Below are positions 23,357 to 46,783 of a DNA stretch of 64,000 bases, in pieces (within the stretch, counting starts at the first letter, position 1; each line of letters begins with the position of its first letter). The DNA is from Candidatus Aldehydirespirator sp. GTDB lineage: Bacteria > Actinomycetota > Acidimicrobiia > Acidimicrobiales > Aldehydirespiratoraceae. The translations under genes and the position numbers were made by a program. Below the pieces are notes generated by a model, which searched no databases, was not told where the DNA came from, and saw nothing but the letters and a program-made list of their open reading frames with translations. Where the stretch lies: NCBI GenBank assembly GCA_965203635.1, contig OZ241903.1, positions 3,330,918 to 3,394,917 of the forward strand, given 5' to 3'.

Positions 23357-24265
23357 GTGAGGAACTCGGATCCGCTCACTGAGTCGACCGGCATCGACCT
23401 GGCCAGCGACGGGGCCCGGCAGCGGTTGGCCCGCGACGGCTATCTGTTCCTGCGGGGCTTCCTCCCGACCACCGACGTGGCCGCGGTCGAGGGGGCGATC
23501 CTGGAGGCGGTGGCAGCCGCCGGAGGTTGGCTGGCCGAGGGCACCGACCCGGCCGAGTGGATAGCGGGCCTGTCGGTGGCAGCCGAAGGCTACGACGACC
23601 CCGACTTCTGGGCCATGTACCGGCGGGTGCAGAGCCTCCAGGGCTTCCACGAGTTCGCCCATCATCCGCTCATCATCGCGGCGGTGGAAGGTCTGCTTGA
23701 GAGCGAGGTCTTCGCCCACTCCAACCATGTGGCCCGGGTGGTGGGGCCGTCGGCCCGGATCGAGCCCACCCACATCCACCAGGACTGGCGGCCCATCCAG
23801 GGCGCGGCCGACACCCTCACCGTGTGGATCCCGCTGGCCGACATACCCCCACCGATGGGGGGACTGCGCATCCTGGAGGGCTCCCAGCACGGGGGCGTGA
23901 TGCCGTTCGACCCGGAGACCGAGTCCATCCACATCGACGAGCACGACCCGCGGTGGCGCAGCGCCTCCTACCGGCAGGGCGATGTGCTGATCTTCCACAG
24001 CCTCACCGTCCACGCCGGCACGCCCAACACCACCGACAGGCTGAGACGGTCCTGCGAGTTCCGCTACCAGCGGGTCAGCGACCCGGCCGTGGTGTCCACG
24101 GTGACGCTCCCCCACTGGCACCCCTCCGTCGACTGGCCCGAGCTGACCGAGGGCTGGACCTCGCTGGCGTCGATCGAGGTGCCCGATTTCGTCGAGTTCG
24201 AGATGCTCGACGACACCGCCCCCAATATGCCCACCCCGCCATCGCGCCTACTGGGAACCGCCTGA
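23357..24265 (+). CDS. PhyH-family Fe(II)/2-oxoglutarate dioxygenase (PhyH-1)
   Basis: HIHQDW (HxD), GDVLIFHSLTVHAGTPN (distal His), RLRRSCEFRY (2OG Arg). Confidence 0.8.
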   Translation: MRNSDPLTESTGIDLASDGARQRLARDGYLFLRGFLPTTDVAAVEGAILEAVAAAGGWLAEGTDPAEWIAGLSVAAEGYDDPDFWAMYRRVQSLQGFHEFAHHPLIIAAVEGLLESEVFAHSNHVARVVGPSARIEPTHIHQDWRPIQGAADTLTVWIPLADIPPPMGGLRILEGSQHGGVMPFDPETESIHIDEHDPRWRSASYRQGDVLIFHSLTVHAGTPNTTDRLRRSCEFRYQRVSDPAVVSTVTLPHWHPSVDWPELTEGWTSLASIEVPDFVEFEMLDDTAPNMPTPPSRLLGTA

Positions 24266-24307
24266 CATCGGGCCGCCCCGACGGCGCGGGGAGCCGGCTG
24301 CCCGCGC

Positions 24308-25483
24308 TCAGCCGAAGATCGCCTCGTTGACCTCGACGCCCAGGCCGGGGCGGGGCTCGGCGCCGACCCGGCCTCCGGACGGCTGGGGCTCTCCGATGAA
24401 GATCGGCACCTGCTCGGACTCCGGTAGGGAGTCCCACACCGGCATCGGGAAGTACTCGACCATGGGCACGTTGGCGGTGCCCAGCGCGAAATGGATGTGG
24501 ACGGGGCCGTAGGCGTGGGGGATGACGGTGAGCCCGGCCGCCTGGGCCAGAGCCGCGATCTTGCAGCCCTCGGTGAAGCCTCCGCAGCGCCTCAGATCGG
24601 GCTGGAGGATGTCCATGGCCTCGCGCTCGATGATGTCGGCGAAGCCGTAGCGGGTGTACTCATGCTCGCCGCCCGAGATCGGAATGCTGGTCTCCCGCCT
24701 GAGCTTGGCGTAGCTGGTGAGGTCGTCGGGGACGAAGGGCTCCTCGATCCAGGCCAGGTTGTAGGGCTCCAGCCGCCGGCACATCTTCTTGGCGTAGTTG
24801 AAGTCCCAGCCCATGTAGGCGTCGATCATGATCTCGATGTCACCGCCGACCGCGTCGCGGATGTTGGCCACATGGGCCTCGTTCTCGGCCATGCCCCGAA
24901 TACCGCTGCCGGGCCCGTAGGGGAAGCGGGCCTTCATGGCCTGGTACCCCTCAGCCACGTACGCCTTCGCCTCCTGGGCGACCAGATCCGCACCGACGGG
25001 GTGGAGGGCCGACGCGTACACCGGCACATCGGGATGGACTGGCCCACCCAGAAGCTCGTAGACCGCGCTGTCCGACGCCTTGCCGCAAACGTCCCACAGG
25101 GCGATGTCGATGGCGCTGATGGCCTGGAGGGCGATTCCCTTGCGGCCGTAGGGAAGGGTGGCCCGGTACATGCGGTCCCAAAGCCCCTCGGTCTCGTAGG
25201 CTGGCGCACCCACCAGAAGGTTGCGCAGGTGGCGCTGGATGACGCCCTCCACCGCGCCGACGCCGTCCTCGCACCATCCCCGGCCCACGACGCCGTCCGA
25301 CGTCTCGATCTCGATCACGGCCATAGCCGATTCCCAGAACCACGAGCCCCTGGTCTCCTGGTACTCGGGGTAGATGTCCAGCGGCGTCACCAGCGGCAGC
25401 GTCTTCTCCCGCTCGGCGAGGTGCCCCCAGATAGACCGGGGGGCGTGGCGGACTCGGACATCGGTGATCTTCACGTTGCTCAC
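24308..25483 (-). CDS. Enolase-superfamily acid-sugar dehydratase, L-rhamnonate dehydratase-like (paralogue 1)
   Basis: The N-terminal region YPEYQETRGSWFWESAMAVIEIETSDGVVGRGW parallels RhamD/YfaW. Metal ligands IDAYMGW / WIEEP / GGEHE; general-base IPHAYG. The GTG start overlaps the upstream stop (GTGA). Confidence 0.8.
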   Translation of the reverse strand: MSNVKITDVRVRHAPRSIWGHLAEREKTLPLVTPLDIYPEYQETRGSWFWESAMAVIEIETSDGVVGRGWCEDGVGAVEGVIQRHLRNLLVGAPAYETEGLWDRMYRATLPYGRKGIALQAISAIDIALWDVCGKASDSAVYELLGGPVHPDVPVYASALHPVGADLVAQEAKAYVAEGYQAMKARFPYGPGSGIRGMAENEAHVANIRDAVGGDIEIMIDAYMGWDFNYAKKMCRRLEPYNLAWIEEPFVPDDLTSYAKLRRETSIPISGGEHEYTRYGFADIIEREAMDILQPDLRRCGGFTEGCKIAALAQAAGLTVIPHAYGPVHIHFALGTANVPMVEYFPMPVWDSLPESEQVPIFIGEPQPSGGRVGAEPRPGLGVEVNEAIFG

Positions 25484-26343
25484 ACCTTGTAGTAGTGCTC
25501 GGCGTTGCTCCGGAACAGGGCGGATCGCTCGTCGGCGGAGAAGTCGGCGGTTATCTCACGGTAGGCGTCGACCACGGCGCGGTAGGGGCTGTACAGGCTG
25601 TCGACGGGCCAGTTGGAGCCGAACATGCACCGCTCCACCCCGAACACCTCAATGCAGGCCAGAACCCAGGGGCGGATGCTCTCGGTCGTCCACGAGTGGT
25701 CGGTCATGCCGAGACCGGAGATCTTGCACGCCACGTTGGGGGCTCCGGCGAGGGTGGCCATCCCGGCCCGCCAGGCGTCGAAGTACTCCGGGGTGCGCTC
25801 CATGGGCACCCCGCAGTGGCCCAGGATGAACTGGAGGTCACCGAACAGCTCGGCGGCCTGGCGGGCCTCGCCCATGCCTTCCCAAGTGGAGTTGAGGTCG
25901 TAGGAAAAGCCGAGATCGTTCAGCGCTTGAAGGCCGCGGCGGAACTCCGGGGTCAGCAGATCCTCGCCCTGCACGAAGTTGCGCACGCCCCGCATGTTGG
26001 CGTGCTCACCGTGGCGCTCGAGCTCGGCTCGCGCCCCTGGCGACGTGAGATCGGTCTTGGCCACGATGGCGTGCGGGTAGCCGTGCTCGTCGGCGACCTG
26101 CTGCAGCCACGCCGTCTCCCACACCTGGTCGTCACCGCCGTACTCGGCCTGCACATGGACCGACTTGATGACGTCACAGCCCTCGAAGTCGGCCAGCAGG
26201 TCCTCGATCAGGTAGTTGCGGCGGATAGCCGAATAGTCGCCGACGATGGCGGTCTCCTCCGGCTCCTCCTCCTCGAGCCAGTGGTAACGACCCTGGCTGA
26301 TGTCCCACAGGTGATGGTGGGAATCGACGAATGACTCGGTCAT
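25480..26343 (-). CDS. Amidohydrolase-2 family protein, sugar-lactonase-like
   Basis: FVDSHHHLWD N-terminal metal motif. Co-oriented and overlapping with the dehydratase. The family includes 6-deoxy-sugar lactonases. Confidence 0.65.
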   Translation of the reverse strand: MTESFVDSHHHLWDISQGRYHWLEEEEPEETAIVGDYSAIRRNYLIEDLLADFEGCDVIKSVHVQAEYGGDDQVWETAWLQQVADEHGYPHAIVAKTDLTSPGARAELERHGEHANMRGVRNFVQGEDLLTPEFRRGLQALNDLGFSYDLNSTWEGMGEARQAAELFGDLQFILGHCGVPMERTPEYFDAWRAGMATLAGAPNVACKISGLGMTDHSWTTESIRPWVLACIEVFGVERCMFGSNWPVDSLYSPYRAVVDAYREITADFSADERSALFRSNAEHYYKV

Positions 26344-26408
26344 GTCTCCTTCTCTCTACGGAGTCGAGATTGCTGCGTGTTCTGGTCCCTGCGTGATTGT
26401 CGTGTCCC

Positions 26409-27482
26409 CTAGCTTGGCACCGCCTGCCGGGTGCCGGTTCTGGCCGACTCGTAGGCAGCTTCCAACAGTCCCACGACAGCCGCTCCGAGTTGAGGGGGCG
26501 AGTGATTCTCGTCCCGTCCCAGGATGACGTCGACCAGGTTGTTGACCGGGGCGGCCTCCGGGTAGGCCTCGGTGTAGGTCCTCGCCCCGGCGGCCCGCCC
26601 GACGGGGTTGTGCTCTCTGGAGCCGTCGGCCCGGTAGAGACCCAACTCCGATGCGGCCAGGTCAAAGAGGATGTGACCCTCGGTGCCGTAGAGCCGGTAC
26701 TCGAGAAGCTCCTCCTGGGTCCGGACCGTCGATCCGGTGGAGCCGACCGTCCCGATGCAGCCTCCTTCGAACCGCACCGCCATGGCGTCCACGAGGTCGA
26801 CCCTGAGGTCCTGGTTCTCCATGAAGGCGAAGACGTCGAAGGGCACCAGACCGGTCATGAACAGCAGCAAGGCGGCCGAGTGGGTGATCTGCACGATGGC
26901 CTGGCCGCCGCCCGACACCGCGGGGTCGCCGTAGGTGTCGGTTCCGGTGGGTGTGATGGTGAACCCGACCGCGTCGCCCACTAGGTGGACATCGCCGCGA
27001 AAGAGCTCCCACACGATCGACGCGAACAGAGAGTGAACGTAGAGAAGCTCGCCGATCTCGCCGGACGCGATCCAGTCCCGTGCGGCGAGAACCTGCTGGT
27101 TGTAGTGGTAGGGGTAGCCGACGACTATCTCCAGTCCCCGATCGGTCGATTCGGCCAGCAGCCGGGCCGCATGGTCGAACTCCACCACCATCGGCTTCTC
27201 CAGCATCAGGTGGGCTCCGGCCTCCAGAGCGTCGATCGCCACCTGGTAGTGGGCCATGTGGGGCACCGCGATGACGACCCCGTCGAGGGATTCGCCGTCG
27301 AGCATCTCGGTGTGGCTCCGGTACGCCCGCTCCGGGCCGAAGGCCGCCACCGCCCGGTCGCGCTTGTCGTCTATTGGGTCGGCGATGGCCACCAGCTCTG
27401 CTTCGGGGTTGGCGACGATGGCAGGCAGGTGGGCCCGGGTCGCCCACCAGCCCGTTCCTACCACTCCGATCCGGGCTGCCAC
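26409..27482 (-). CDS. Gfo/Idh/MocA-family NAD(P)-dependent oxidoreductase
   Basis: MAARIGVVGTGWWATRAHLPAI Rossmann N-terminus and EKPM motif. Confidence 0.8.
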   Translation of the reverse strand: MAARIGVVGTGWWATRAHLPAIVANPEAELVAIADPIDDKRDRAVAAFGPERAYRSHTEMLDGESLDGVVIAVPHMAHYQVAIDALEAGAHLMLEKPMVVEFDHAARLLAESTDRGLEIVVGYPYHYNQQVLAARDWIASGEIGELLYVHSLFASIVWELFRGDVHLVGDAVGFTITPTGTDTYGDPAVSGGGQAIVQITHSAALLLFMTGLVPFDVFAFMENQDLRVDLVDAMAVRFEGGCIGTVGSTGSTVRTQEELLEYRLYGTEGHILFDLAASELGLYRADGSREHNPVGRAAGARTYTEAYPEAAPVNNLVDVILGRDENHSPPQLGAAVVGLLEAAYESARTGTRQAVPS

Positions 27483-28501: not shown

Positions 28502-28531
28502 CACGCCGAGGAAGGATTGGGGGTACCAACC

Positions 28532-29320
28532 ATGAGCCGACGGTTCGAGGGACGCAACGTCTTCGTGACCGGCGCCGGGAGTGGCTTCGGGCGCCGCACC
28601 GCTGAGCTGTTCGCGGCCGAGGGCGCCAAGAACCTGTACCTGCTCGACTACAAGCAGGAGCGGCTGGACGCGGTGGCGCCGGTGATCGAGGAGCTCGGAG
28701 CCACACCGCACCTGCTGAACTTCGACCTCGGCGACATGGAGAACTGCGCCGAGGCGGTGGCCCAGGCTCTGGCCATCGACCCCAAGCTCGACGTGATGGT
28801 GTCCAACGCGGCCGCGTGGACCATTGCCGAGTTCGTCGACATGACCGACACCGAATGGCGCAGGGTGCTGTCGGTCAACCTCGACGCCTACTTCGTGATG
28901 GGCAGCCGGGCAGCCCGGGCGATGAAGGAGACCGGGGGTGGGGTGATCCTGTTCACGTCCTCGATTGCGGCCCTGGGGCACGGCCGGGGGTTCACCCACT
29001 ACTGCGTGGCCAAGGCCGGTGTCGCCGCGCTGACGAAGGCCATCGCGGTGGAGTGCGCCCCGTACAACATCAGGTGCAACTCTGTCGGCCCGGGCCCGGC
29101 CGACACCCAGCAGTCAGTCGACCTCGCCGGCGAGGAACTGATGGACAAGTGGCGCACCGAGGGCTTCCCGGTGGTGCCCGCCAACCGGCTGGCGTCCGTC
29201 GACGACATTGCCCACGCCTTCCTGTACCTCGCCTCCGACGAGGCCCAGTACGTGTCGGGCATCAACCTCATCGTGGACGGCGCCCTGACCGCCCAGACCT
29301 ACGACGTGCCCGAGAACTAG
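28532..29320 (+). CDS. SDR family oxidoreductase (paralogue B)
   Basis: TGAGSGFG, YCVAK. Near-duplicate of 9113..9901. Confidence 0.9.
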   Translation: MSRRFEGRNVFVTGAGSGFGRRTAELFAAEGAKNLYLLDYKQERLDAVAPVIEELGATPHLLNFDLGDMENCAEAVAQALAIDPKLDVMVSNAAAWTIAEFVDMTDTEWRRVLSVNLDAYFVMGSRAARAMKETGGGVILFTSSIAALGHGRGFTHYCVAKAGVAALTKAIAVECAPYNIRCNSVGPGPADTQQSVDLAGEELMDKWRTEGFPVVPANRLASVDDIAHAFLYLASDEAQYVSGINLIVDGALTAQTYDVPEN

Positions 29321-29351: not shown

Positions 29352-30143
29352 ATGAGAGCCGAGGTCTCGCCCGAGGAGGTCCGCTCCTACCGCGACGACG
29401 GGTTCTTGATTGTCGAGGACCTGCTCGATGCTGACGAACTGGAACAATGGCGCAGCGCGGTCGACGGCGCCGTAGGCGGCCACGGCGTGTCGGGACGGGA
29501 CCTCGGCCCGGACCAGGCCGAGTACTACGACCGGGTCTTCCTGCAGCGGGTGAACATGTGGAAGACCAGCAGTGAAGTACGGGCCCTAGTGCTTGACGAG
29601 CGCTTCGGGCAGCTGGTCGCGGCCCTGGCCGGCACCGACGAGGTCCGCCTCTACCACGACCACGCCCTCATCAAGCTTCCGTGGGCCAACCCCACCAACT
29701 GGCACGCCGACAACCCGTACGACCCCTACCGCTCCGATGAAGCGATCATGCTGTGGATCGCCCTCGACCACGCCGACGCCCGCAACGGCTGCCTGCACTT
29801 CCTGCCCGGCAGCCATCGTCGCGACAGGCTCGACGACGGCGCGGCACTCGACGACGCCAACATCGGGGCACTGCTGGAGGCCAACCCCCAGTTCGCGGCC
29901 ATCGAGCCAGAGATGGCCGAGGTGGCGGCGGGCACCGGGATCTTCATCAACGGCATGACGGCCCACGCCGCCGGGGCCAACATGAGCCGTCGGCCCCGCC
30001 GGGCGTTCTCGATGCTGTTCATTCCGGGCCGGTGCCGCTACACCGGCCAGCCGGGCGCCCTTCCCGCCGAGCTGACAGCCCGCCTCCAGCCGGGCGACAT
30101 GCTCATCGACGACGAGCACCTGCCCCTGCTCTACCAGGGCTGA
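29352..30143 (+). CDS. PhyH-family Fe(II)/2-oxoglutarate dioxygenase (PhyH-3)
   Basis: NWHADNPYDP (HxD), FINGMTAHAAGAN (distal His), RRPRRAFSMLF. Confidence 0.8.
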   Translation: MRAEVSPEEVRSYRDDGFLIVEDLLDADELEQWRSAVDGAVGGHGVSGRDLGPDQAEYYDRVFLQRVNMWKTSSEVRALVLDERFGQLVAALAGTDEVRLYHDHALIKLPWANPTNWHADNPYDPYRSDEAIMLWIALDHADARNGCLHFLPGSHRRDRLDDGAALDDANIGALLEANPQFAAIEPEMAEVAAGTGIFINGMTAHAAGANMSRRPRRAFSMLFIPGRCRYTGQPGALPAELTARLQPGDMLIDDEHLPLLYQG

Positions 30144-31054
30144 TCGAAGGCCTCGGTAGCGAGGCGCTCCAGTTGATCGATCAGGAAGTCCATGTGGGCC
30201 TGCACCGGGGAGCTCGGGGTGTGCGACAGCGCCCGGACGGTCGGCGAGGCGATGAGACCCCGCCGGACCAGCGCCCGCTTCTCGATCTGCAAGAACAGCT
30301 CGAAGTCCTGGAGCGAGAAGCTGATGTAGGGCAACAGCGCACCGAACAAGTCGTGAGCCTTCTCTGGCTGTTGGGAGACCGCTGCATCGAACACCGTGTC
30401 GAGCAGGTCGGCGATGGCCACTCCGGGCATGATCCCGTCGATGCCGACGGAGACGCCCTCGAGCATGTAGAGCCCACCCCAGCCCTCAAGGATTCCGATC
30501 CGGCCCGCGGTGGCCGACCGGATGGCGAGCAGCCGGTCGACCATCATCGGATCCTCAAGCTTGACGAACCGAAAATTGTCACAGCGGTCGCAGAGCGCGG
30601 TGGCGAGGGCTGCTCCCATGGTCGGCCCGCCTGGGTTGAAGTCCTGGATCAAGACCGGCAACGGGATGGAGGAAGCGACGGCGGCGCAGTACTCGATGAT
30701 GTCATCCTCCGATGATCCGAACTGCCGGGGAATGGCGAAGGACACCACGTCGACACCCATTTCCGTGTAACGCCGAGCCAGTCCCGACGCCACCCGGGAC
30801 GAGACGTGGTTGGCCTGAGCGATCACCGGAATCCGGCCTGCGTTGACCTTGACGGCAACGGCCACAACCTGATCCCGCTCGGCCTCGGTGAGCTTGTAGA
30901 ACTCGCTTCCGTAAGCGGGCAGGCACATCCCGGCCAGACCCTGCCCCGCGATCCAGTCGACGACTGCGGCCAGCGACTCGACGTCGATCGACTCGTCGGG
31001 GGCGAAGGGCGTCGGGACCACGGGAACCACGCCGCGCAACCGAACCTCCCCCAT
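30131..31054 (-). CDS. DapA/N-acetylneuraminate-lyase-family class I aldolase (candidate 2-keto-3-deoxy-sugar-acid aldolase)
   Basis: VVPVVPTPF..., AYGSEFYKLTEAER, FRFVKLED (Schiff-base Lys context). The ATG at 31054 overlaps the dehydratase stop (TGATG). The N-terminal 320 aa of the 629-aa track ORF is a shadow. Confidence 0.75.
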   Translation of the reverse strand: MGEVRLRGVVPVVPTPFAPDESIDVESLAAVVDWIAGQGLAGMCLPAYGSEFYKLTEAERDQVVAVAVKVNAGRIPVIAQANHVSSRVASGLARRYTEMGVDVVSFAIPRQFGSSEDDIIEYCAAVASSIPLPVLIQDFNPGGPTMGAALATALCDRCDNFRFVKLEDPMMVDRLLAIRSATAGRIGILEGWGGLYMLEGVSVGIDGIMPGVAIADLLDTVFDAAVSQQPEKAHDLFGALLPYISFSLQDFELFLQIEKRALVRRGLIASPTVRALSHTPSSPVQAHMDFLIDQLERLATEAFDQPW

Positions 31055-32220
31055 CAGGCCAACGGCGTGAAACCGTCGAGGGAGAGGGTGGCGCCCAGCC
31101 CCGGATCGGCGCCGATCGACACCTGGCCGCCATCCGGTATAGCTGCGCCGTCGAAATGGGGAGCCTCCTCGACTTCGTCCCATACCGGAACGGGGAAGTA
31201 CTCGACCATGCTCACGGCGGTGTCGCTGGTGGCCAGGTGCAGGGTCGGCAGGCCGTAGGCGTGGGTGTAGACGGGCAGGCCGGCGGCTTGGGCCAGCGCG
31301 CAAACCTTCCTGGCCTCGCTGAAGCCTCCCACCCGCCCAATATCGAACTGGATGATGTCGAGTGCGGAGGCCTCGATGATCTGAGCGAACCCGTAGCGCG
31401 TGGTCTCGTGCTCGCCGGCTGCGATGGGCACGGGTGAGGATCGGCGCAATACCGCATACTCGCGGATCTGGTCGGGCAGCAGGGGCTCCTCCACCCACTT
31501 CATGTCGAAGGGCTCCAGGGCCCGGCACATCCGCAGCGCGTACTCCAGGTCCCAGCCCATATAGGCGTCGGCCATGATGTCGATGTCGTCGCCCACCGCG
31601 CCTCGCAGCATCCGGACCAGCTCGACGTTGCGGCGCAGGCCCGCGAGCCCGTCGGCGGGGCCGTGCAGGAAGCGCATCTTCATGGCCTTGAAGCCCCGCC
31701 GCACGTACTCGGTGGCCTCGGCCAGGAACTCGTCCTCGTTGGTGAAGTGGAGGTGGCTGGCGTAGACGGGAATCACGTCCCGGGCCCGGCCGCCGAGCAG
31801 CTCGAACACGGGTTGGCCGAAGTGCTTGCCGGCCAGGTCCCACAGCGCTATGTCCAGTGCGCTGATGGCGTACAGGGCCGGGCCCTTGCGGCCGTACGGC
31901 ATGGTGCTGCGGAACATCTGATCCCAGAGCAGGCTGCGCTCCAGGGGGTCCGCACCGACGAGGAGCCCGGTCAGGTGGTTCTCGATGATGACGCTGGTCG
32001 CCCGGGCGTAGTCCTCGCACCAGCCGGTGCCCACCAGCCCATCATCGGTCTGGATCTCCACCACGCACATGGCGTCGGCCGGGAACCAGCTCGACAGCGG
32101 ATGGCGGTACTGCGGGTGGATCGCCATGAGCGTCACCAGCCGCAGTTCGTCCTGGCGGGCCGCGAAGTCGCCCCAGAACGACATGTCGATGTGGGTGACC
32201 TTCACTCTCCCTATCCGCAC
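31054..32220 (-). CDS. Enolase-superfamily acid-sugar dehydratase, L-rhamnonate dehydratase-like (paralogue 2)
   Basis: About 55 percent identical by eye to 24308..25483. ADAYMGW / WVEEP / AGEHE / YTHAYG. I chose the GTG at 32220 (RBS GGGGGAG 5 nt upstream). Confidence 0.8.
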   Translation of the reverse strand: MRIGRVKVTHIDMSFWGDFAARQDELRLVTLMAIHPQYRHPLSSWFPADAMCVVEIQTDDGLVGTGWCEDYARATSVIIENHLTGLLVGADPLERSLLWDQMFRSTMPYGRKGPALYAISALDIALWDLAGKHFGQPVFELLGGRARDVIPVYASHLHFTNEDEFLAEATEYVRRGFKAMKMRFLHGPADGLAGLRRNVELVRMLRGAVGDDIDIMADAYMGWDLEYALRMCRALEPFDMKWVEEPLLPDQIREYAVLRRSSPVPIAAGEHETTRYGFAQIIEASALDIIQFDIGRVGGFSEARKVCALAQAAGLPVYTHAYGLPTLHLATSDTAVSMVEYFPVPVWDEVEEAPHFDGAAIPDGGQVSIGADPGLGATLSLDGFTPLA

Positions 32221-32249
32221 GGCCACTCCCCCAGGCCCGTCCGCGCCGG

Positions 32250-33180: not shown

Positions 33181-33181
33181 C

Positions 33182-34627: not shown

Positions 34628-34722
34628 TGCTGGCTCCGTCCTCAGCGGCCGGGGGGTCTAGGTTAGCTTCGCACCCGTTCACGACCCTGAAGCAGGGGTC
34701 AAGGAGACGAACCGAAGCCACG

Positions 34723-37700: not shown

Positions 37701-38316
37701 GCTCAACCACGACGGGCATCTGTCTACCGGGATGCTGGGCACCGACGCGCTGGCCCGGGTGTTGCCCGCCGGGGGCCGGGCCGATGTGTTCTTCACCGTG
37801 GCGACCCGGACGACTTTCCCGAGTTGGGGCGAGCAGATCGCCAAGGGCGCCACCACTCTGTGGGAAGCCTGGGAGGGAGAGACCAACCCGCAACTCAGCT
37901 ACAACATGAAGCTGTTCGGCAGCATCCAGAAGTTCTTCTTCCGGGACCTGGCCGGCATCCGCCGGGGCTCTCCCGGCTACGCCACCTTCGCGGTCGAGCC
38001 CCAGGTCGTGGGCGGCCTGACCCACGCCCGGGCCGAGGTGAGCACGATACGGGGCGCCGTCTCGGCCGGCTGGCGGCGCGACAACGGCACCTTCGAGCTC
38101 GATGTGGCCGTCCCGCCCAACACCCGGGCCACAGTCCGCGTCCCCAAGCTCGGAGATGCTGATCCGGTGATCTCCGAGGGCGGGGTGACGGTGTGGAGCC
38201 GCGGCGAGCCCATCGGCAACCGTCTCGGCATCAACGGAGCCCATCAGACCGACGAGGCCGTGGTGTTCGATGTCGGCTCGGGCGACTACTCGTTCGCGAA
38301 AGGCAGAGAAGCATGA
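34723..38316 (+). CDS. Bifunctional CE4 deacetylase-like domain (aa ~1-255) fused to GH78 alpha-L-rhamnosidase (aa ~258-1197)
   Basis: N-terminal LLTFDDANHSD and EIGNHTRSH (CE4). Then KCEYRTDPLGIDEPAPRFSWRI, WWKVQTWD and a long (alpha/alpha)6-type C-terminal region typical of bacterial GH78. No signal peptide. Confidence 0.8.
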   Translation: MTDRELLPIPDGLVLLTFDDANHSDLASVAPLLLRHGFGATFFISEGLGFTEGNPGEFMTWDEIRQLHDLGFEIGNHTRSHLDITELTADEVAEEIAHIQRRCDEHGIPAPTSFCYPGFHHSPEVVRVLASEGFAFARRGVYPEYSDTGRGARGPAYDPRADHPLLIPTTGYAGPEWALDDLAWAVDHARDGRIASICFHGVPLRRYHWVSTELEVFAAYMQYLADAGCTVIACRDLADYVDPAWAGTDPYAAINGRTRFAAIDAKCEYRTDPLGIDEPAPRFSWRIQATDRSMSRSTYRTVARDQHQSAYRVLVSSSRAGLDAGVGDQWDSGRIASGSGNGIVYAGNPLRSGQQCWWKVQTWDRDDCRGTDSPVATFEMGLLEAGDWEASWISAAAGVSSPLLRAETVLDDRPVRARCYVTGLGFYELFINGQRVGDRVLDPATTYYHNDQPQEMGSRVLYATYDVTRHLRAGPNAVGVMLGNGWYSAEDDIPPSPSHREPYGDRPVALLRLDIELAGGETVHLVSDPSWRASAGPITYNDNSHGEVYDARLEQAGWCEPGFDDSHWEPAEATAGPSGRLEAQPLPPVRVVRTIAPTRSFDVGDGATIYDFGQNMTGWTRLTVSGPAGARVTIRHGHDIHPDGSLDNRANMYSYADDVEFHTDAVARGEQGFEPLDEDYDHRARQTDTYVLAGRDSEAWEPRFTLHGFRYAEVACTGGEVAVESIEARHARTTLAESEGFECSDPQLNQIHSNTTWTFACSLQGYPQDAADRSERVGWLGDPVAGDFSFTFDDVLFWSKWLEDFADSQLPSGDLPVISPLHWRRTYDCYLWYPVWKSSYAIVAWDVYLESGDPRVLERHYDRIENLVGFLGGHADDHLLAGGLGDHMEPQPDGTSAFAPVHTPAGLTSTAIYFRDVQILAWAAAVLGDERRAGKYSRLAADIRDAFNQRYFDAETANYATGSQGSNAIPLALGLVPTGYEDAVLANIVSDIELNHDGHLSTGMLGTDALARVLPAGGRADVFFTVATRTTFPSWGEQIAKGATTLWEAWEGETNPQLSYNMKLFGSIQKFFFRDLAGIRRGSPGYATFAVEPQVVGGLTHARAEVSTIRGAVSAGWRRDNGTFELDVAVPPNTRATVRVPKLGDADPVISEGGVTVWSRGEPIGNRLGINGAHQTDEAVVFDVGSGDYSFAKGREA

Positions 38317-39707
38317 CAGGCCCCAACATCGTCCTGTTCATCACCGACCAGCAGACCCGGGCCACGATCAGCGCCTACGGCAACGACCGCACCCACACCC
38401 CGCACATGGACGAGTTGGCCGCGGGCGGCGTCGCCTTCGAGAGGTCGTACTGCTCGTCGCCGCTGTGCAGCCCGGGCCGGGCCAGCATCGTCACCGGCCA
38501 GATGCCCCACACCACCGGAGTGGATGTCAACGATCTGCCGGTACGCAATGGCATCGTCAACCTCGGGGAGATCTTCTCCGGTGCCGGCTACGAGACCGTC
38601 TGGGCGGGCAAGTGGAACCTGCCCGAGTCGTTCCCGACCGAGCCCGACGCTATACCCGGATTCGGGAACCTCGAATGGCAACGGCGGCCATACCCGTCGA
38701 TAGAGCAGATACTCTCGGGCGACTTCAGTCAGGTCGGCGAGCAGGCGCCGTACCGCGACCTCGGCGCTTCGATGGACGCCGACATCACCGACGCGGCCGT
38801 GCGGTACCTGGCCGGAGCCCCGCGGGAGCCCTTCCTGCTGGCCGTGTCGCTCTACAACCCCCACGACATCTGCTTCTGGATCATCGACCGGGACCACGAC
38901 ATGCTGCCAGCGGTGCCGCCGGACGCCTTGCTGCCCGATCTGCCGGACAACTTCGACGCGGTCGCGAACGAGCCCGAGTTCGTGCGGTGGATGCGCAACC
39001 AGAAGGCGGTGATCCCCGATTATGGCTGGAATGAGCTGCGTTGGACCCACGACTGGGACGAGCGGCACTGGCGGCGGTACCTGTACGTCTACTACCGGCT
39101 CGTCGAGATGGTCGACATGCAGATCGGCCGGGTGCTGGGCGCCGTCTCCGACGCCGGGATCCAGGACTCCACGCTGGTGGCATTGACCAGCGACCACGGG
39201 GAGGGGGTGGCCGCCCACCGCTGGGCCACCAAGCAGATGCTCTACGAGGAGCCGGTCACGGTCCCTCTCGTGCTGAGATGGCCGGGGATGATCCCCGCGG
39301 GGCGGTTCGACCGGTCCCACATCGCCTCCGGCGTCGACATCGTCCCGACGCTGTGCGAGTACGCGGGCGTGGAGGAACCCGAGGGCCTGGCCGGCGAATC
39401 CCTGCGGCCCGTGATCGACGATCCCACCCTGGGCGGTCGTGACTTCGTCGTGTCGGAGCTCCAGCCCGACCGCTTCAGGATGGAGCTCAAGGGCCGGATG
39501 CTGCGGACGCGCCGGTACAAGTACGTGGCTTTCACCGCAGGCGCCGATCCCGAGATGCTGTTCGATCTGGAGACGGATCCGCTGGAGACGCTCAACCTGG
39601 CCAGCTCGGCCGGTCACGCCGACATCCTGGCCGAGCACCGCGCCCTGCTTGAAATGTGGACTAGGCGAACCGACGACCCATTCGAAGTGGGCTCGGCTGT
39701 GATCTGA
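38313..39707 (+). CDS. Type I (S1) sulfatase, canonical C-x-P-x-R motif; no signal peptide
   Basis: PNIVLFITDQQ; SPLCSPGRASIVTG (38466..38480). The ATG overlaps the rhamnosidase stop (ATGA). Confidence 0.85.
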   Translation: MTGPNIVLFITDQQTRATISAYGNDRTHTPHMDELAAGGVAFERSYCSSPLCSPGRASIVTGQMPHTTGVDVNDLPVRNGIVNLGEIFSGAGYETVWAGKWNLPESFPTEPDAIPGFGNLEWQRRPYPSIEQILSGDFSQVGEQAPYRDLGASMDADITDAAVRYLAGAPREPFLLAVSLYNPHDICFWIIDRDHDMLPAVPPDALLPDLPDNFDAVANEPEFVRWMRNQKAVIPDYGWNELRWTHDWDERHWRRYLYVYYRLVEMVDMQIGRVLGAVSDAGIQDSTLVALTSDHGEGVAAHRWATKQMLYEEPVTVPLVLRWPGMIPAGRFDRSHIASGVDIVPTLCEYAGVEEPEGLAGESLRPVIDDPTLGGRDFVVSELQPDRFRMELKGRMLRTRRYKYVAFTAGADPEMLFDLETDPLETLNLASSAGHADILAEHRALLEMWTRRTDDPFEVGSAVI

Positions 39708-40617: not shown

Positions 40618-40624
40618 AGGCGCG

Positions 40625-41458: not shown

Positions 41459-41481
41459 GGGCTGAAGCCGCTGGGCTCCGC

Positions 41482-44429: not shown

Positions 44430-44550
44430 TGATGCTCCTTTGCACCCGCTGTGCGAGGGCGGACGGCACGACCCACGGTTGAGACCCACCATCTCCGGCC
44501 CGCAGGTGCAACCCTAGCCGGTATACCGTTTGAGGCCACGGCTTTATTCC

Positions 44551-44600: not shown

Positions 44601-44683
44601 CGCGCCGCGACGGTGTTCACAAATCGCTCCCCGTCCGCTCGGCCTCTCGGCCCGTTCATTTGCAGGTTCTGCGTTGCCCGGAT

Positions 44684-45732
44684 TCAGGCGACGGTGACGG
44701 CGGCGTCCAGGTACACGTCCTGGATGGCGTTGAGCAGTTCGACGCCGGAGGCCATGGGCCGCTGGAAGGCCTTGCGACCCGAGATCAGCCCGGTGCCGCC
44801 GGCCCGCTTGTTGATCACCGCGGTGGTGACCGCCTCGGCCAGATCGCTGGCGCCCGACGATGCCCCGCCGCTGTTGATGAGCCCGATCCGGCCCATGTAG
44901 CAGTTGGCCACCTGGTAGCGGCACAGGTCGATGGGATGGTCGCTGGTGAGCTGGTCGTAGACGAGGTCGTGGGTCTTGCCGAAGCCCACTGCCCGGTATC
45001 CGCCGTTGTTGGTGGGCAGCTTCTGCTTGATGATGTCGGCCTCGATGGTGACGCCCATGTGGTTGGCCTGACCGGTCAGGTCGGCGGCCGCGTGGTAGTC
45101 GGTGCCGTCCACCTTGAACGCCGAGTTGCGCAGGTAGCACCACAGCACGGTGAACATGCCGAGCTCGTGGGCGGCCGCGAACGCCTCGGAGACCTCGCCG
45201 ATCTGGCGCCGGGCGTTGTCGGATCCGAAGTAGACGGTTGCCCCGACGCCGGCCGCGCCGAGGTCCCAGGCCTGCTCCACCGAGCCGAACATCACCTGGT
45301 CGTACGACTCGGGATGGCTCAGCAGCTCGTTGTGGTTGAGCTTGACGATGAACGGGATGCGGTGGGCGTAGCGGCGCGACGCCATGCCCAGCACACCGAA
45401 CGTGGTGGCCACCGCTTGCAGCCCCCCTCGACGGCCAGCTCCACGATTCCCATCGGGTCGAAGTAGGCCGGGTTGGGTGCGAACGAGGCTGCGCCCGAGT
45501 GCTCGATGCCCTGGTCGACGGGCAGTATCGACACGTAGCCGGTGCCGGCCAGCCGGCCGCTGCCGAACAGCGACTGGATGCTGCGCAGCACCTGCGGCGA
45601 GCGATCGCTCACGGCGAGGACCCGGTCCACGAAGTCGGGGCCGGGAAGGGTCAGCGACTCCCGCTCGAAGGTCTTGCACTCATGCTCGAGCAGTGACTCG
45701 GCGGATTCGCCGAGCAGGGTGTGAATGTCCAC
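44684..45732 (-). pseudogene. fbaB: Class I fructose-bisphosphate aldolase (FbaB/DhnA type) interrupted by a 1-nt deletion near 45414
   Basis: N-terminal part (..[27 protein letters not shown]) is in the frame of ORF 45319..45825. The C-terminal part ([30 protein letters not shown]...) is in the frame of ORF 44684..45679. Colinear with E. coli FbaB from memory. Confidence 0.7.
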
Positions 45733-45913
45733 GGAAGGCTCCTGATGGGGTGGTCCGAGGCGACCGCCGGTCGGCAAGCCAGGCGACCCGCGCCCGCCTG
45801 CCGCCACGGTAGCGCCCCAACCCATCAGCGGGCGCGGACCCGCGAAGGTGGGCCGCGGGCGGGGCTCCGACGAGTTGGGCTAGCGTCGTTGCAAGCATCC
45901 AGGGAGACCAGCG

Positions 45914-46783
45914 ATGAGGCTCACCGACGACCAGCTCCGGGAATTCGACGAGACGGGCCTGCTGTTCCTGCCCGACGTCTTCTCGGCCGCGGAAGTGGCG
46001 CTGCTGCGCCGCGAGGCCGACACCTGCTTCGCCTTGCAGAGAGAGGAGGTGTGGCGCGAGGACAACGGCGCACCCCGCAGCGCCTTCGCCGCCCACCGCT
46101 ACAACGAGGCGTACCGGCGCATCGCCGCGCACCCCCGGCTCCTCGAGCCGGTGATGCAGATCCTCGACGGCCGGGTGTACATGCACCAGTTCAAGATCAA
46201 CGCGAAGGCGGCCTTCGACGGCGCGGTCTGGCAGTGGCACCAGGACTACGGCACATGGCAGCGCGACGACGACATGCCCGAGCCGCGGGCCATGAACATC
46301 GCGGTCTTCCTCGACGACGTGACTGCGGCCAACGGCCCGCTGCTCCTCATTCCGGGCAGCCACAAGCTGGGCGTGCTCGAGGCCGGCCACGACCTGGAGA
46401 CAACCACCTACCCGCTCTGGTGCCTGGAGCGTGAGACCGTCAGCGCACTGGCCGAGCGGGGCGGCGTGGCCGCGCCGACCGGCAAGGCCGGCTGCGTGCT
46501 GATGTTCCACTCGAACATGGTCCACGCCAGCCCGCCCAACATCAGCCCCTTGAGCCGGGTGATCGTCTACCTGAGCCTCTGCGAGGTCTCGAACCACATC
46601 CGCAGGTTCCAGCGGGCCGAGTGGTGGGCCCTGCGCGACTTCGCGCCGATCGAGCCGTTGGCCGACGACTGCCTTGAGGAACTGGTCCGACTCCAGAGCT
46701 CGACTCCCGATCAGCCCGCACGAGACCACAGTCTGGACCCACCGCATGAACCTCTTCCGGCTGCTGCAGGAGCGCGTCGCTGA
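45914..46783 (+). CDS. PhyH-family Fe(II)/2OG dioxygenase, ectoine-hydroxylase-like (PhyH-6)
   Basis: WQWHQDYGTWQRDDDMPEP resembles the EctD signature region. NGPLLLIPGSHK, PTGKAGCVLMFHSNMVHAS. Confidence 0.75.
   Translation: MRLTDDQLREFDETGLLFLPDVFSAAEVALLRREADTCFALQREEVWREDNGAPRSAFAAHRYNEAYRRIAAHPRLLEPVMQILDGRVYMHQFKINAKAAFDGAVWQWHQDYGTWQRDDDMPEPRAMNIAVFLDDVTAANGPLLLIPGSHKLGVLEAGHDLETTTYPLWCLERETVSALAERGGVAAPTGKAGCVLMFHSNMVHASPPNISPLSRVIVYLSLCEVSNHIRRFQRAEWWALRDFAPIEPLADDCLEELVRLQSSTPDQPARDHSLDPPHEPLPAAAGARR

Follow-up and report, generated by a model that had tools for sequence, protein, structure and literature searches.

Conserved PhyH-family oxygenase genes in a candidate sulfated-rhamnose glycan utilization locus of an Acidimicrobiia bacterium

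Introduction

Among the described enzymes closest to the oxygenases considered here, SnoK and SnoN act on sugar carbons and are the closest solved relatives of PhyH3 (TM 0.77-0.81). HygX acts on sugar residues and is the main PDB match of PhyH4 and PhyH5 (E about 1e-11 to 1e-14), with which it has in common an H-x-G...E-x3-H iron site. PtlH, the closest fold to PhyH1, is a terpenoid-acid hydroxylase, and H11, the closest characterized enzyme to PhyH6, is a free-proline hydroxylase. Enzymes of PF05721, including one from Poribacteria, were reported in 2025 to O-demethylate 2'-O-methyl nucleosides (2'-O-methylribose), releasing formaldehyde (PMC12709175). Within the literature searched no system like the one below has been described, as the first-pass annotation of this DNA had stated. 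Sponge symbionts are rich in PhyH enzymes, and the pairing of such enzymes with a sugar locus offers a testable clue to the reason. The present host, an Acidimicrobiia bacterium whose closest relatives are uncultured metagenome-assembled genomes (MAGs), is kin to sponge-symbiont lineages; the first-pass annotation had correctly guessed Actinomycetota.

Six PhyH Genes in One Window

Within the window, the whole 64,000-nucleotide stretch of DNA that was analyzed, six open reading frames match PF05721 (PhyH) at 59-110 bits in Pfam profile searches (gathering score 22 bits), which upholds the coordinates first proposed for them; no further PhyH domain was found by Pfam among the called genes of the whole window. 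All six lie on the + strand: PhyH1 (23357-24265; 63.9 bits), PhyH2 (27608/27662-28501; 101 bits), PhyH3 (29352-30143; 110 bits), PhyH4 (39781/39796-40617; 64 bits), PhyH5 (40487/40625-41458; 59 bits), and PhyH6 (45914-46783; 109 bits). Where two starts are given, the shorter form (27662, 39796, 40625) seems the more plausible, for PhyH2 because an indel boundary against relatives falls at 27662, and for PhyH4 and PhyH5 because their homologues are 273-277 aa long. The probability of meeting at least six PhyH genes among 22 by chance is 3.6e-6 at a gene frequency of 2%, as in Poribacteria, and about 1e-15 at ordinary gene frequency (frequencies from PMC3909097).

PhyH4 and PhyH5 are tandem paralogues with 57% identity, and every other pair among the six shows 20-29%; the six proteins do not form a single family. 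The motifs originally described hold for PhyH1, PhyH2, PhyH3, and PhyH6, which carry HxD...H and a conserved Arg. The description of the first His fits PhyH4 and PhyH5 only in part: these lack HxD and have H-G-G instead, with the carboxylate shifted to E-x3-H.

Genes of the Sugar Locus

The locus begins with a sugar ABC importer. Its substrate-binding lipoprotein (SBP; 19655..21076, +; Pfam SBP_bac_1/SBP_bac_8) lies in a reading frame open from 19460 and probably starts at M66, ahead of a TAT/lipobox signal (RRRFL...IGAC). Two permeases, perm1 and perm2 (21151-22140 and 22137-22982, +; BPD_transp_1), precede the L-rhamnose mutarotase gene rhaM (23011..23319, +; 81.5 bits for PF05336, cut-off 23.4), and after a further 37 nt PhyH1 forms the final gene of the importer-rhaM operon. 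The operon that follows on the - strand (24308..27482) encodes, by Pfam, a Gfo/Idh/MocA dehydrogenase (26409-27482), an Amidohydro_2 lactonase (25480-26343), and an MR_MLE acid-sugar dehydratase, MR_MLE1 (24308-25483). The top NCBIfam models for the latter two are L-fucono-1,5-lactonase and L-rhamnonate dehydratase, both scoring under their equivalog cut-offs. An SDR gene (28517..29320, +; Pfam adh_short_C2), weakly similar to the NCBIfam L-rhamnose 1-dehydrogenase Lra1 (160 bits; cut-off 400), stands 15 nt downstream of PhyH2 and 31 nt upstream of PhyH3.

A second - strand operon (30131..34627) comprises, again by Pfam, an S1 sulfatase with a CGASR motif (Sulf1, 33182-34627), a CE4 deacetylase (about 32250-33170), a second MR_MLE dehydratase (about 31054-32220), and a DHDPS-family aldolase (30131-31039). 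Sulf1 scores 6e-108 against the S1_25 domain of P36, an ulvan GH78/sulfatase (PDB 6HR5, 'alpha-L-rhamnosidase/sulfatase (GH78)' chain). On the + strand, a CE4 deacetylase is fused to a GH78 alpha-L-rhamnosidase (34720..38316; six Pfam domains; 525 bits against NCBIfam alpha-L-rhamnosidase) in a frame open from 34570 that probably starts at MTDRELL. It is followed by a second S1 sulfatase with a CSPGR motif (Sulf2, 38313..39707, +), the top PDB match of which is a BT1596-type 2-O glycosaminoglycan sulfatase (8e-61). PhyH4 lies 88 nt beyond Sulf2, and PhyH5 a further 7 nt on. The N-terminal sequences of Sulf1, Sulf2, and the CE4-GH78 protein carry no signal peptide; the SBP carries one.

The neighbors named in the first-pass annotation (S1 sulfatases, GH78, rhaM, SDR, Gfo/Idh/MocA, and MR_MLE) were thus all recovered by Pfam. 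The co-orientation and tight coupling that it proposed are borne out by gaps of 7-88 nt between PhyH genes and their neighbors, and by ATGA stop/start overlaps at perm1/perm2, at Amidohydro_2/MR_MLE1, and where the Sulf2 start codon meets the GH78 stop.

Conservation of the PhyH Neighborhoods

Each of eight MAG loci from close relatives (L001-L008) contains PhyH3, and seven also contain PhyH1, at 81-91% identity and in unchanged positions; the SBP is conserved at 88-96% in relatives. Orthologues of PhyH1 (63-91% identity) invariably lie downstream of permease/rhaM genes in relatives, and no sugar context surrounds its distant homologues (36-41% identity) in Edaphobacter and one other genome. 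Its AF2 model (pLDDT 95) has PtlH as the closest fold, and alignment invariants predict an iron triad of H141-D143...H219 with R230.

For PhyH3 the predicted triad is H118-D120...H205 with R216/R217, from invariant residues, and the AF2 model (pLDDT 87) is closest to SnoK (TM 0.81, 28% identity), then SnoN. In Chloroflexota, Deinococcota, and Poribacteria, the genes beside its orthologues encode a rhamnosidase, a sulfatase, an MR_MLE dehydratase, or components of a sugar transporter. In ten Caldilineaceae loci the PhyH gene sits within the ABC operon (SBP-SBP-PhyH-permease-permease-GH106 rhamnosidase-MR_MLE-SDR-rhaM), a pattern seen also in two Caldilineaceae-like loci (L083/L084). A Deinococcota MAG has sulfatase-PhyH (overlapping)-Gfo-...-GH78, and in a Poribacteria locus a single strand carries genes for a sulfatase, a polysaccharide lyase, MR_MLE, a membrane protein, and three more PhyH proteins. 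Among 140 proteins encoded by the two closest genes on either side of PhyH3-clade members, the top Pfam families are PhyH (20), ABC permease (16), SBP (8), SDR (6), MR_MLE (4), and sulfatase (3), and 45 of the 81 loci have an MR_MLE homologue no more than 10 kb away; these counts are non-independent events, because many of the 81 loci are from related Poribacteria. A link of this clade to rhamnosidase, sulfatase, sugar-transport, and acid-sugar dehydratase genes is supported by its recurrence in four further phyla.

PhyH4 is found in L002-L006 and L085, and PhyH5 orthologues in L005 and L085. Neither is found in the close relatives L001 and L007, and the pair is therefore accessory. The GH78-Sulf2-PhyH-PhyH module is retained, with a MalK-type ATPase gene after it, in a less closely related genome (about 69% identical). 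The sole PDB matches of PhyH4 are HygX chains 4XCB/4XC9 (about 3e-11), and the H-x-G...E-x3-H site is invariant across 28 family members. Among 96 immediate neighbors in 28 environmental loci, S1 sulfatase leads with 6, followed by Gfo (4), GH3 (3), acetyl-xylan esterase (2), and MR_MLE (2); the sulfatase enrichment drops to P about 0.01 if the hosts are sulfatase-rich (2% of genes).

Proposed Function and Candidate Chemistries

Operon membership, conserved gene order, the cross-phylum synteny of the PhyH3 clade, the sulfatase neighbors of the PhyH4/5 family, and the sugar-acting solved relatives of PhyH3 and PhyH4/5 give good support to a functional tie to glycan use for four of the six, PhyH1, PhyH3, PhyH4, and PhyH5. 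They also support reading these four as conserved components of a sulfated-rhamnose glycan utilization locus, co-transcribed within its operons. From this context, the four enzymes probably act on carbohydrate substrates of the locus. Clues to the substrate come from rhaM, GH78, the rhamnonate-dehydratase-like MR_MLE, and the P36-like Sulf1. On balance, we slightly favor the view that 19.6-41.5 kb of the window is a cytoplasmic locus using imported sulfated, acetylated rhamnose-containing oligosaccharides, with the oxygenases acting on sugars. The ABC system would import the oligosaccharide; the two S1 sulfatases would then strip sulfate, the two CE4 domains acetyl groups, and GH78 would free L-rhamnose. 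RhaM, the Gfo and SDR dehydrogenases, the lactonase, the two MR_MLE proteins, and the DHDPS-type aldolase could form a non-phosphorylative deoxy-sugar route. The four PhyH enzymes would oxidize sugar C-H bonds, handling decorations or configurations that hydrolases cannot.

The top-ranked chemistry, O-demethylation, is a tentative and rather doubtful assignment. A PhyH enzyme would hydroxylate the O-methyl (O-alkyl) group of a 6-deoxyhexose, and the resulting hemiacetal would collapse to a free hydroxyl and formaldehyde, so that each decoration (sulfate, acetyl, methyl) might have its own remover. That the natural substrate contains methylated rhamnose is an assumption drawn from marine and cyanobacterial polysaccharides generally. 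Precedent exists within PF05721, as noted above; none of the six proteins falls in a clade with the proven O-demethylases (20-27% identity; top E 6e-13, for PhyH6), and no formaldehyde-detoxification gene was recognized by Pfam among the called genes of the window. Alternatively, the PhyH enzymes may desulfate oxidatively in the manner of AtsK, but this is without precedent in PF05721, AtsK being a TauD/PF02668 enzyme and PF02668 matching none of the six, and it looks redundant given two dedicated cytoplasmic S1 sulfatases.

PhyH6 and PhyH2

The first-pass annotation had treated the six as one functional set, a view that PhyH6 and PhyH2 contradict. PhyH6 was rejected as a member of the sugar locus on its similarity to proline hydroxylases and its separation from the island by the housekeeping genes KorAB and class I FBP aldolase. 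It matches the trans-3/4-proline hydroxylase H11 (7E01/7DZZ) over its full length at 2e-59 with about 45-50% identity, an estimate read off the printed alignment, and GriE and EctD at 7e-44 and 1e-39; against the NCBIfam ectoine hydroxylase it scores 142.7 bits, under the cut-off of 336.5. It thus groups with enzymes of a characterized, unrelated substrate, and is a free-amino-acid, proline-hydroxylase-like enzyme. PhyH2 is a recent single-gene insertion 5' of the SDR gene, missing in all eight close relatives compared; window positions 27662-28520 correspond to a spacer of ~64 nt in relative L002. Its clade is small, with 78 representatives at E<=1e-30 and a top identity of 60%.

The PhyH Proteins of the Window

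The window has a G+C content of 68%, and a Pfam scan of nearly all of its called genes recovered exactly six PF05721 (PhyH) proteins, all encoded on the forward strand between 23.3 and 46.8 kb. The gene call was based on GC3 and Pfam was then run on the called genes, with ORFs 1954-2448, 3473-4303 and 63054-63950 and alternative ORFs at 61.1-63.8 kb standing outside the scan. The first-pass annotation had reported six PhyH ORFs, a claim borne out by scores of 59-110 bits against a gathering cut-off of 22 bits. These are PhyH1 (23357-24265, 64 bits), PhyH2 (27662-28501, 101 bits), PhyH3 (29352-30143, 110 bits), PhyH4 (39796-40617, 64 bits), PhyH5 (40625-41458, 59 bits), and PhyH6 (45914-46783, 109 bits). 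At a gene frequency of 2%, the value reported for Poribacteria (PMC3909097), which are the known genomes richest in this domain, the probability of at least six PhyH genes within 22 consecutive genes is still only 3.6e-6. The six genes represent five clades, PhyH4 and PhyH5 being 57% identical and all remaining pairs 20-29% identical. The HxD...H triad and Arg are present in PhyH1, PhyH2, PhyH3, and PhyH6 and are invariant within the PhyH1 and PhyH3 families. AF2 models of PhyH3 (pLDDT 87) and PhyH1 (pLDDT 95) display the double-stranded beta-helix and match solved family members with a probability of 1.00.

Besides PF05721, the six proteins gave one sub-threshold Pfam match, to 2OG-FeII_Oxy_5. 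None matched the TauD family (PF02668) at E<=0.01, and none scored above the cut-off of an NCBIfam equivalog. Membership in the 2'-O-methyl-nucleoside demethylase clade was rejected for all six, as BLASTP comparison with the Poribacteria, Acidisoma, and Sphingomonas enzymes gave 20-27% identity and a best E value of 6e-13 (PhyH6). PHYHD1 structures were only weak matches.

Organization of the Putative Sulfated-Rhamnose Locus

Refined starts and gene junctions define five tightly packed transcription units. The first, on the forward strand, encodes a solute-binding lipoprotein (SBP), two permeases, rhaM, and PhyH1, and is followed by a reverse-strand unit of Gfo, lactonase, and MR_MLE1. PhyH2, an SDR, and PhyH3 make up the third unit (forward), sulfatase 1 (Sulf1), CE4, MR_MLE2, and a DHDPS aldolase the fourth (reverse), and CE4/GH78, sulfatase 2 (Sulf2), PhyH4, and PhyH5 the fifth (forward). 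A GC-rich hairpin in the gap between Sulf2 and PhyH4, considered as a terminator candidate, shows no more folding stability than shuffled sequence does (z = -0.09). The SBP bears a TAT/lipoprotein signal, and both sulfatases and the GH78 protein are without a signal peptide, so that processing would be cytoplasmic.

Sulf1 matches PDB 6HR5, the sulfatase chain of a Formosa agariphila GH78/sulfatase from the ulvan cascade, at 6e-108; we take 6HR5 to be an S1_25 rhamnose-3-sulfate sulfatase. Sulf2 is closest to the uronate-2-O-sulfatase type, and the GH78 protein carries five Pfam domains and scores 525 bits against the NCBIfam alpha-L-rhamnosidase model. A rhamnosidase together with a rhamnose-sulfate-type S1 sulfatase, the combination expected of a sulfated-rhamnan/ulvan-type locus, is found here. 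Neither an ulvan lyase nor any other polysaccharide lyase family appeared among the Pfam matches of the window's scanned called genes, three ORFs (13488-14870, 17853-19079, and 60456-61073) having no Pfam match. Genes for the downstream sugar route include rhaM (identified by Pfam), a DHDPS-family aldolase, and several enzymes that fall under their NCBIfam cut-offs: the two MR_MLE proteins score 265 and 229 bits against L-rhamnonate dehydratase (cut-off 393), the lactonase 122 bits against L-fucono-1,5-lactonase (cut-off 400), and the SDR 160 bits against Lra1 (cut-off 400).

Sulf1 is thus close to the S1_25 domain of P36, the Formosa agariphila ulvan-cascade protein (6HR5), and the window has GH78, rhaM, lactonase, rhamnonate-dehydratase-like MR_MLE, and DHDPS-type aldolase in common with that cascade and the LRA1-4 pathway. 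It differs from the ulvan cascade in having an ABC importer instead of SusC/D, in the cytoplasmic location predicted for all of its enzymes, and in that an ulvan lyase family was not recognized. To the combined gene set of the ulvan cascade and LRA1-4 it adds CE4 domains and four Fe/2OG oxygenases; we know of neither addition in the described ulvan cascade or the described non-phosphorylative L-rhamnose pathway.

Directly downstream of PhyH5 lies a reverse-strand pair of KorB-like and KorA-like 2-oxoacid:ferredoxin oxidoreductase genes (41482-44492), followed by a class I fructose-bisphosphate (FBP) aldolase whose score of 467 bits exceeds its cut-off. These housekeeping genes end the island, leaving PhyH6 and its oxidoreductase partner outside it. 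KorAB consumes 2-oxoglutarate, which PhyH-type enzymes need. A functional partnership of KorAB with PhyH5 was nevertheless rejected; the genes probably adjoin by coincidence, as KorAB does not occur at this position in L085, another fetched locus with PhyH homologues, and a housekeeping FBP aldolase comes next. Just upstream of the island is a second sugar-type ABC system (13488-19457), comprising a 460-aa ORF without a Pfam match, two permeases, a Gfo/Idh/MocA protein (16576-17832), a 408-aa protein with neither a Pfam nor an NCBIfam match (17853-19079), and, on the other strand, a gene with an EthD domain. In the close relatives L002-L004 this EthD gene is conserved at 97%, so the island may extend further than stated.

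Conservation Within the Lineage

Gene order is kept in the eight close-relative MAG loci, L001-L008. PhyH3 is present in 8/8 and PhyH1 in 7/8, at identical positions (81-91% identity), with PhyH1 fixed in the slot after permease-rhaM and PhyH3 in that after the SDR. PhyH4 is found in five close relatives and is missing from two. A more distant 3.15-Mb genome keeps permease-PhyH1 as well as GH78-sulfatase-PhyH-PhyH, after which a MalK-type ATPase gene follows. The family, Aldehydirespiratoraceae (UBA11606), includes a sponge-symbiotic lineage (PMC11706023).

The nearest solved relative of PhyH1, judged from its sequence and AF2 model, is PtlH, which is distant. Sugar-gene context was looked for around distant PhyH1 homologues and was not found. 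The clade of PhyH2 is small, and its similarity to many family members is weak, the best named of these being methylphosphonate hydroxylase. It is a clean one-gene indel (27662-28520) missing from all eight close relatives; in L002 a 64-nt Gfo-SDR spacer stands exactly in its place, between flanks that are 91-95% identical.

PhyH6 matches the trans-3/4-proline hydroxylase H11 over its full length (2e-59, residues 4-249, about 45-50% identity as taken from the printed alignment), GriE at 7e-44, and EctD at 1e-39, and these three enzymes serve as a comparison for PhyH6 only. Its score against the ectoine hydroxylase model TIGR02408 is 142.7 bits, under the cut-off of 336.5, and it is thus not EctD itself. 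The first-pass annotation had grouped PhyH6 with the sugar-locus oxygenases. That assignment is not supported, as PhyH6 falls in an unrelated characterized clade, the amino-acid hydroxylases, and lies beyond the housekeeping genes. For PhyH1, PhyH3, PhyH4, and PhyH5 the link to sugar use is well supported; it is not supported for PhyH6, nor for PhyH2, which is an insertion specific to this strain. PhyH6 is followed by a SAF-domain oxidoreductase of the DRL type (46746-48101), whose gene overlaps the end of PhyH6 by ~38 nt. No NCBIfam match was found for this protein, which may form a small amino-acid-modifying unit with PhyH6.

The PhyH3 Clade

The nearest solved relatives of PhyH3 are SnoK and SnoN, the nogalamycin carbocyclase and epimerase (PDB 5EPA, 5EP9), with a phmmer E value of 2.4e-20 and Foldseek TM scores of 0.81 and 0.77-0.80 at 24-28% identity. 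Like PhyH3, they have a PF05721-type double-stranded beta-helix and an HxD...H triad. SnoK and SnoN act on ring carbons of an L-6-deoxyhexose-type sugar residue. They do so as tailoring enzymes of an antibiotic cluster, on a glycosylated anthracycline, whereas PhyH3 belongs to a catabolic sugar-import/rhamnosidase locus, and at 28% identity between SnoK and PhyH3 a shared substrate cannot be assumed.

A record identical to the window's PhyH3 was looked for in the protein collection and was not found, and the comparison is therefore with relatives. PhyH3 orthologues that are ~82-90% identical occur in MAGs labelled Acidimicrobiaceae, Acidimicrobiales, and "Candidatus Aldehydirespirator," and others that are 45-55% identical in MAGs of Poribacteria, Caldilineaceae, Latescibacterota, Gemmatimonadota, Opitutales, Spirochaetia, and Deinococcota. 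The clade spans at least six phyla, mainly of uncultured bacteria. Genes of the fetched loci were called by a simple ORF heuristic. Ten Caldilineaceae loci, together with L083 and L084, which follow the same pattern, read SBP-SBP-PhyH-permease-permease-GH106-MR_MLE-SDR-rhaM. The Deinococcota MAG locus (L079) reads sulfatase-PhyH-Gfo-sulfotransferase-like-AP_endonuc_2-GH78 with an adjoining ABC importer; its Sulfotransfer_3 gene (11064-11780) sits within an otherwise catabolic cluster. In Poribacteria three PhyH genes besides the PhyH3 orthologue share one strand with a sulfatase, a lyase of the PL2 type, a membrane protein of the DUF6785 family, and an MR_MLE, and poribacterial PhyH arrays also include creatininase-like and SOD genes. 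In L088, a PhyH adjoins a Gfo gene. Among immediate neighbors of the clade as a whole (n=140 proteins), the top Pfam families are PhyH, ABC permease, SBP, DUF6785/6784, SDR, MR_MLE, and sulfatase.

In 45/81 PhyH3 loci an MR_MLE homologue is found no more than 10 kb away, a count that is inflated by the many loci from related Poribacteria and Caldilineaceae. The MR_MLE of the Caldilineaceae-like L083 (18334-19461) is 72-76% identical to those of ~24 Poribacteria loci (e.g., L010 13190-14401), where the gene is found ~3 kb downstream even when no glycosidase is nearby. Identity this far above expectation across phyla suggests that a PhyH-MR_MLE module has been horizontally transferred among co-resident symbionts. 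For the MR_MLE partners in Caldilineaceae and Poribacteria, no NCBIfam equivalog above its cut-off was found.

Several of the fetched loci carry many PhyH genes. The poribacterial L082 (8261-11770) has them in tandem arrays of four, and PhyH-rich islands occur in L086 (629-13317), a marine contig also recovered from a TARA sample as L087, and in the poribacterial L010 (1480-10798). One PhyH of L010 is 580 aa long, with an ~290-aa N-terminal extension that has no Pfam match, and one of L086 has 412 aa. In L010 (11050-12972) and five other Poribacteria loci, a ~640-aa protein matching DUF6785 and DUF6784 lies between PhyH array and MR_MLE; it has no NCBIfam match, occupies the place of the Caldilineaceae ABC permeases, and may be a transporter. 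A 502-aa metagenome protein (P0275) annotated with ABC permease and PhyH domains was rejected as a true fusion. Because its sequence contains frameshift-type low-complexity stretches, it is treated as an artefact of assembly or gene calling in which neighboring genes seem to have been joined by a frameshift.

PhyH4, PhyH5, and the HygX-Type Iron Site

PhyH4 and PhyH5 both read LHGGG...TEALTH, that is H-x-G...E-x3-H...R, which keeps two His and one carboxylate. In the PhyH4/5 family, H117, G118, G119, E199, and H203 do not vary among 28 sequences. An iron site with such a relocated carboxylate, H-x-G...E-x3-H, has been described for HygX (PMC13374393), the hygromycin B orthoester synthase (PDB 4XC9, 4XCA, 4XCB), which is also the sole strong PDB match of both proteins (E about 1e-11 to 1e-14) and has a sugar as its substrate. 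In HygX, Lys137 is proposed to be catalytic and fills the vacated ligand position. In the HMMER alignment, this Lys (GKLYC) is opposite an Arg (GRIHC) in PhyH5; the corresponding residue of PhyH4, transferred via the six-way alignment, is apparently Thr (GTIHC). PhyH4 and PhyH5 share the H-x-G...E-x3-H site of HygX, yet their context indicates that they are not orthoester synthases, because GH78, the sulfatases, and the ABC importer around them point to catabolism and no biosynthetic genes are present. HygX is biosynthetic and makes an inter-sugar orthoester, whereas PhyH4 and PhyH5 come after sulfatase and rhamnosidase genes in an operon for catabolism.

The PhyH4/5 family is widespread across marine and soil metagenomes. 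Its commonest immediate neighbor is an S1 sulfatase (6/96 proteins, from 28 loci), followed by Gfo, PhyH, and GH3. The host genomes are possibly sulfatase-rich, and at a 2% background the PhyH4/5-sulfatase enrichment drops to P about 0.01.

Proposed Role of the Oxygenases

The genes of the locus, their arrangement in operons, where their products are located, and how far synteny is kept are shown by the analysis, and the chemistry of the oxygenases is what we infer. Each decoration of a rhamnose-rich glycan would have its own remover, with the sulfatases releasing sulfate and the CE4 domains acetyl, and the PhyH oxygenases would be best placed to act on decorations beyond the reach of hydrolases. 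Of the two reactions put forward in the first-pass annotation, desulfation and demethylation, the latter is ranked first, on indirect evidence, as O-demethylation of methylated 6-deoxy-sugars. It is so ranked because PF05721 enzymes provide a precedent on 2'-O-methylribose, because the locus already has hydrolytic sulfatases, and because a porphyran P450 provides a second precedent. Reisky et al. reportedly found, in 2018, a P450 oxidative demethylase within a porphyran utilization locus, an enzyme said to strip a glycosidase-blocking methyl ether from the sugar with release of formaldehyde. That 6-O-methyl-galactose demethylase follows the same logic as the favored reading, an oxidative demethylase within a polysaccharide locus, but it relies on heme and ferredoxin partners and acts on galactose in Bacteroidota, whereas the oxygenases of the locus are of the Fe/2OG type and the sugar here is rhamnose. 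The PF05721 enzymes, one of them from Poribacteria, were shown by experiment to demethylate 2'-O-methylribose with formaldehyde released (PMC12709175). These PHYHD1/FJS demethylases (Stonkus et al., NAR 2025, PMC12709175) share a Pfam family with the six PhyH but form a different clade, act on free nucleosides and not on deoxy-hexoses or oligosaccharides, and have no described link to a glycan locus.

Ring C-H oxidation is unlikely but must be taken as a serious rival, since the structural relatives attack ring carbons and all six PhyH fall outside the demethylase clade. A PhyH would here hydroxylate a ring carbon of a 6-deoxyhexose, giving a keto-sugar, an epimer, or oxidative desulfation, and SDR or Gfo reduction would follow. 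At a carbon with a sulfate ester or other O-substituent, the adduct would collapse to a keto-sugar and the freed substituent; at one with a free OH, a keto-sugar or epimer would arise, as with SnoN, and the SDR and Gfo/Idh/MocA enzymes would restore a configuration acceptable to the pathway. The closest structural relatives, SnoK, SnoN, and HygX, do abstract a ring-carbon hydrogen and not a methyl-ether hydrogen. An SDR or Gfo stands beside PhyH in the PhyH2-SDR-PhyH3 unit, in the sulfatase-PhyH-Gfo arrangement of L079, and in L088; Gfo ranks second among PhyH4/5-family neighbors; and sulfatases recur beside both the PhyH3 and PhyH4/5 clades. The SDR and Gfo are, however, fully explained as ordinary non-phosphorylative rhamnose steps. 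Where desulfation is concerned, we know of no PF05721 member that cleaves sulfate esters, and the locus already has two hydrolytic cytoplasmic S1 sulfatases, one of which is close to a sulfatase that presumably acts on rhamnose-3-sulfate. The lack of TauD-family matches among the six PhyH also weighs against it, the known oxidative sulfatases AtsK and Rv3406 being TauD-family enzymes (PMC3675115).

It is quite unlikely that the PhyH genes are in the island by coincidence, as many-copy genes that insert anywhere and encode hydroxylases of unrelated small molecules plentiful in sponge tissue or seawater (for example amino acids, osmolytes similar to ectoine, derivatives of carnitine or taurine, modified nucleosides, and phosphonates). 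PhyH6 is clearly of the amino-acid-hydroxylase type, PhyH2 is a recent insertion whose best named similarity is to methylphosphonate hydroxylase, PhyH4/5 occur in some relatives and not in others, and distant PhyH1 homologues are without sugar context. PhyH is also hugely expanded in Poribacteria, where some copies are PhnY-like (PMC3909097) and the arrays contain creatininase-like and SOD genes. Chance would not readily produce the fixed positions of PhyH1 and PhyH3 across L001-L008, however, nor the PhyH that separates SBP from permease in a sugar ABC operon, and six PhyH in 22 genes are improbable even at a 2% background. Independent pairings of PhyH3 orthologues are moreover seen in three groups: the partner is GH106 in Caldilineaceae, GH78 plus a sulfatase in Deinococcota, and the set of sulfatase, lyase, and MR_MLE in Poribacteria.

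The strong MR_MLE pairing keeps alive, as a speculative and very unlikely alternative, oxidative glycoside cleavage to a lactone. By chemical analogy, the anomeric C-H of a blocked (sulfated or methylated) rhamnoside would be hydroxylated to give an aldonolactone and a free aglycone; water would be the nucleophile, and the lactone would enter the lactonase and MR_MLE dehydratase steps without a glycosidase or 1-dehydrogenase. Across phyla, the PhyH3 clade is paired most strongly with MR_MLE acid-sugar dehydratases (45 of the 81 loci), the Poribacteria enzymes, 72-76% identical to that of L083, lie ~3 kb downstream even in the absence of a glycosidase, the window has a lactonase and two dehydratases, and HygX chemistry involves the anomeric carbon (PMC13374393). 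The hydrolytic route is nevertheless complete without such a step, since the locus has GH78 and candidate 1-dehydrogenases as well as a mutarotase that would act on free rhamnose. The analogy is purely chemical, and to our knowledge no Fe/2OG enzyme cleaves glycosides via anomeric hydroxylation.

That PhyH4 and PhyH5 are halogenases is hardly credible: the halogenases SyrB2 and WelO5 likewise have no Asp in HxD, and H-x-G (here H-G-G) is invariant across the PhyH4/5 family, but the reading is rejected because E-x3-H is also invariant, the Glu four residues ahead of the distal His being a relocated, HygX-like carboxylate and not a lost one, while neither protein matches the NCBIfam chlorinating-enzyme model and HygX is their only strong PDB match.

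Possible Significance for Glycan Degradation

Sugar-modifying Fe/2OG oxygenases are already known from antibiotic biosynthesis and nucleoside turnover, as are sulfated-rhamnan loci and the non-phosphorylative rhamnose route. In the literature searched, no account was found of PhyH with a sulfatase and rhamnosidase, or with polysaccharide utilization and a sulfatase, and the PhyH-sulfatase association was not described. Nor did that literature contain the combination seen here, of defined PhyH clades as conserved parts of glycan catabolic loci in at least five phyla. We tentatively suggest that the SnoK-like PhyH3, HygX-like PhyH4/5, and PhyH1 clades might represent an unrecognized class of decoration-removing catabolic oxygenases. 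In sulfated marine polysaccharides, such enzymes would strip off methyl ethers by oxidation or make blocked 6-deoxy-sugars accessible in some other way; a bolder variant would have them carry out intracellular, LPMO-like oxidative cleavage of glycosides to aldonolactones. A natural substrate with methyl ethers is assumed here. The locus and its cross-phylum counterparts lead to a testable hypothesis, that defined PhyH clades work on sulfated deoxy-sugar glycans, and supply candidates in the form of short, soluble, cytoplasmic enzymes along with substrates to try.

So far, marine polysaccharide breakdown is known to involve hydrolases, lyases, sulfatases, and esterases, along with a single P450 demethylase. 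If the proposed role is true, Fe/2OG oxygenases would join them and would help to explain the turnover of recalcitrant methylated or sulfated deoxy-sugar polymers in dissolved organic matter and sponge tissue. The presence of PhyH clades in glycan loci also bears directly on the PhyH expansion in Poribacteria (PMC3909097). PhyH is the most abundant Pfam family there, at >1.9% of genes, and is common in other sponge symbionts; a few poribacterial copies are PhnY-like, and in the literature searched the expansion, reported in 2014, has otherwise gone unexplained. A role in decoration removal would, if true, account for it in Poribacteria and other sponge symbionts alike. The label "phytanoyl-CoA dioxygenase" in such genomes should not be taken to mean phytol catabolism, although a preprint on freshwater Verrucomicrobia simply assumes phytol oxidation (bioRxiv 10.1101/324970).

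Genes Downstream of the Locus

A complete rRNA operon occupies the reverse strand at 48907-53940, with 5S (48907-49023), 23S (49112-52200), and 16S (52422-53940) genes and a spacer without tRNA, and accounts for the low-GC, ORF-free stretch at 49-54 kb. A TPR ORF (48102-49019) overlaps the 5S gene, so its called start is probably too far upstream. Further along (55642-57942), a PhoX-type alkaline phosphatase (518 bits) adjoins a PASTA-domain class A penicillin-binding protein and a tyrosyl-tRNA synthetase, which all look like ordinary housekeeping or phosphate-scavenging genes.
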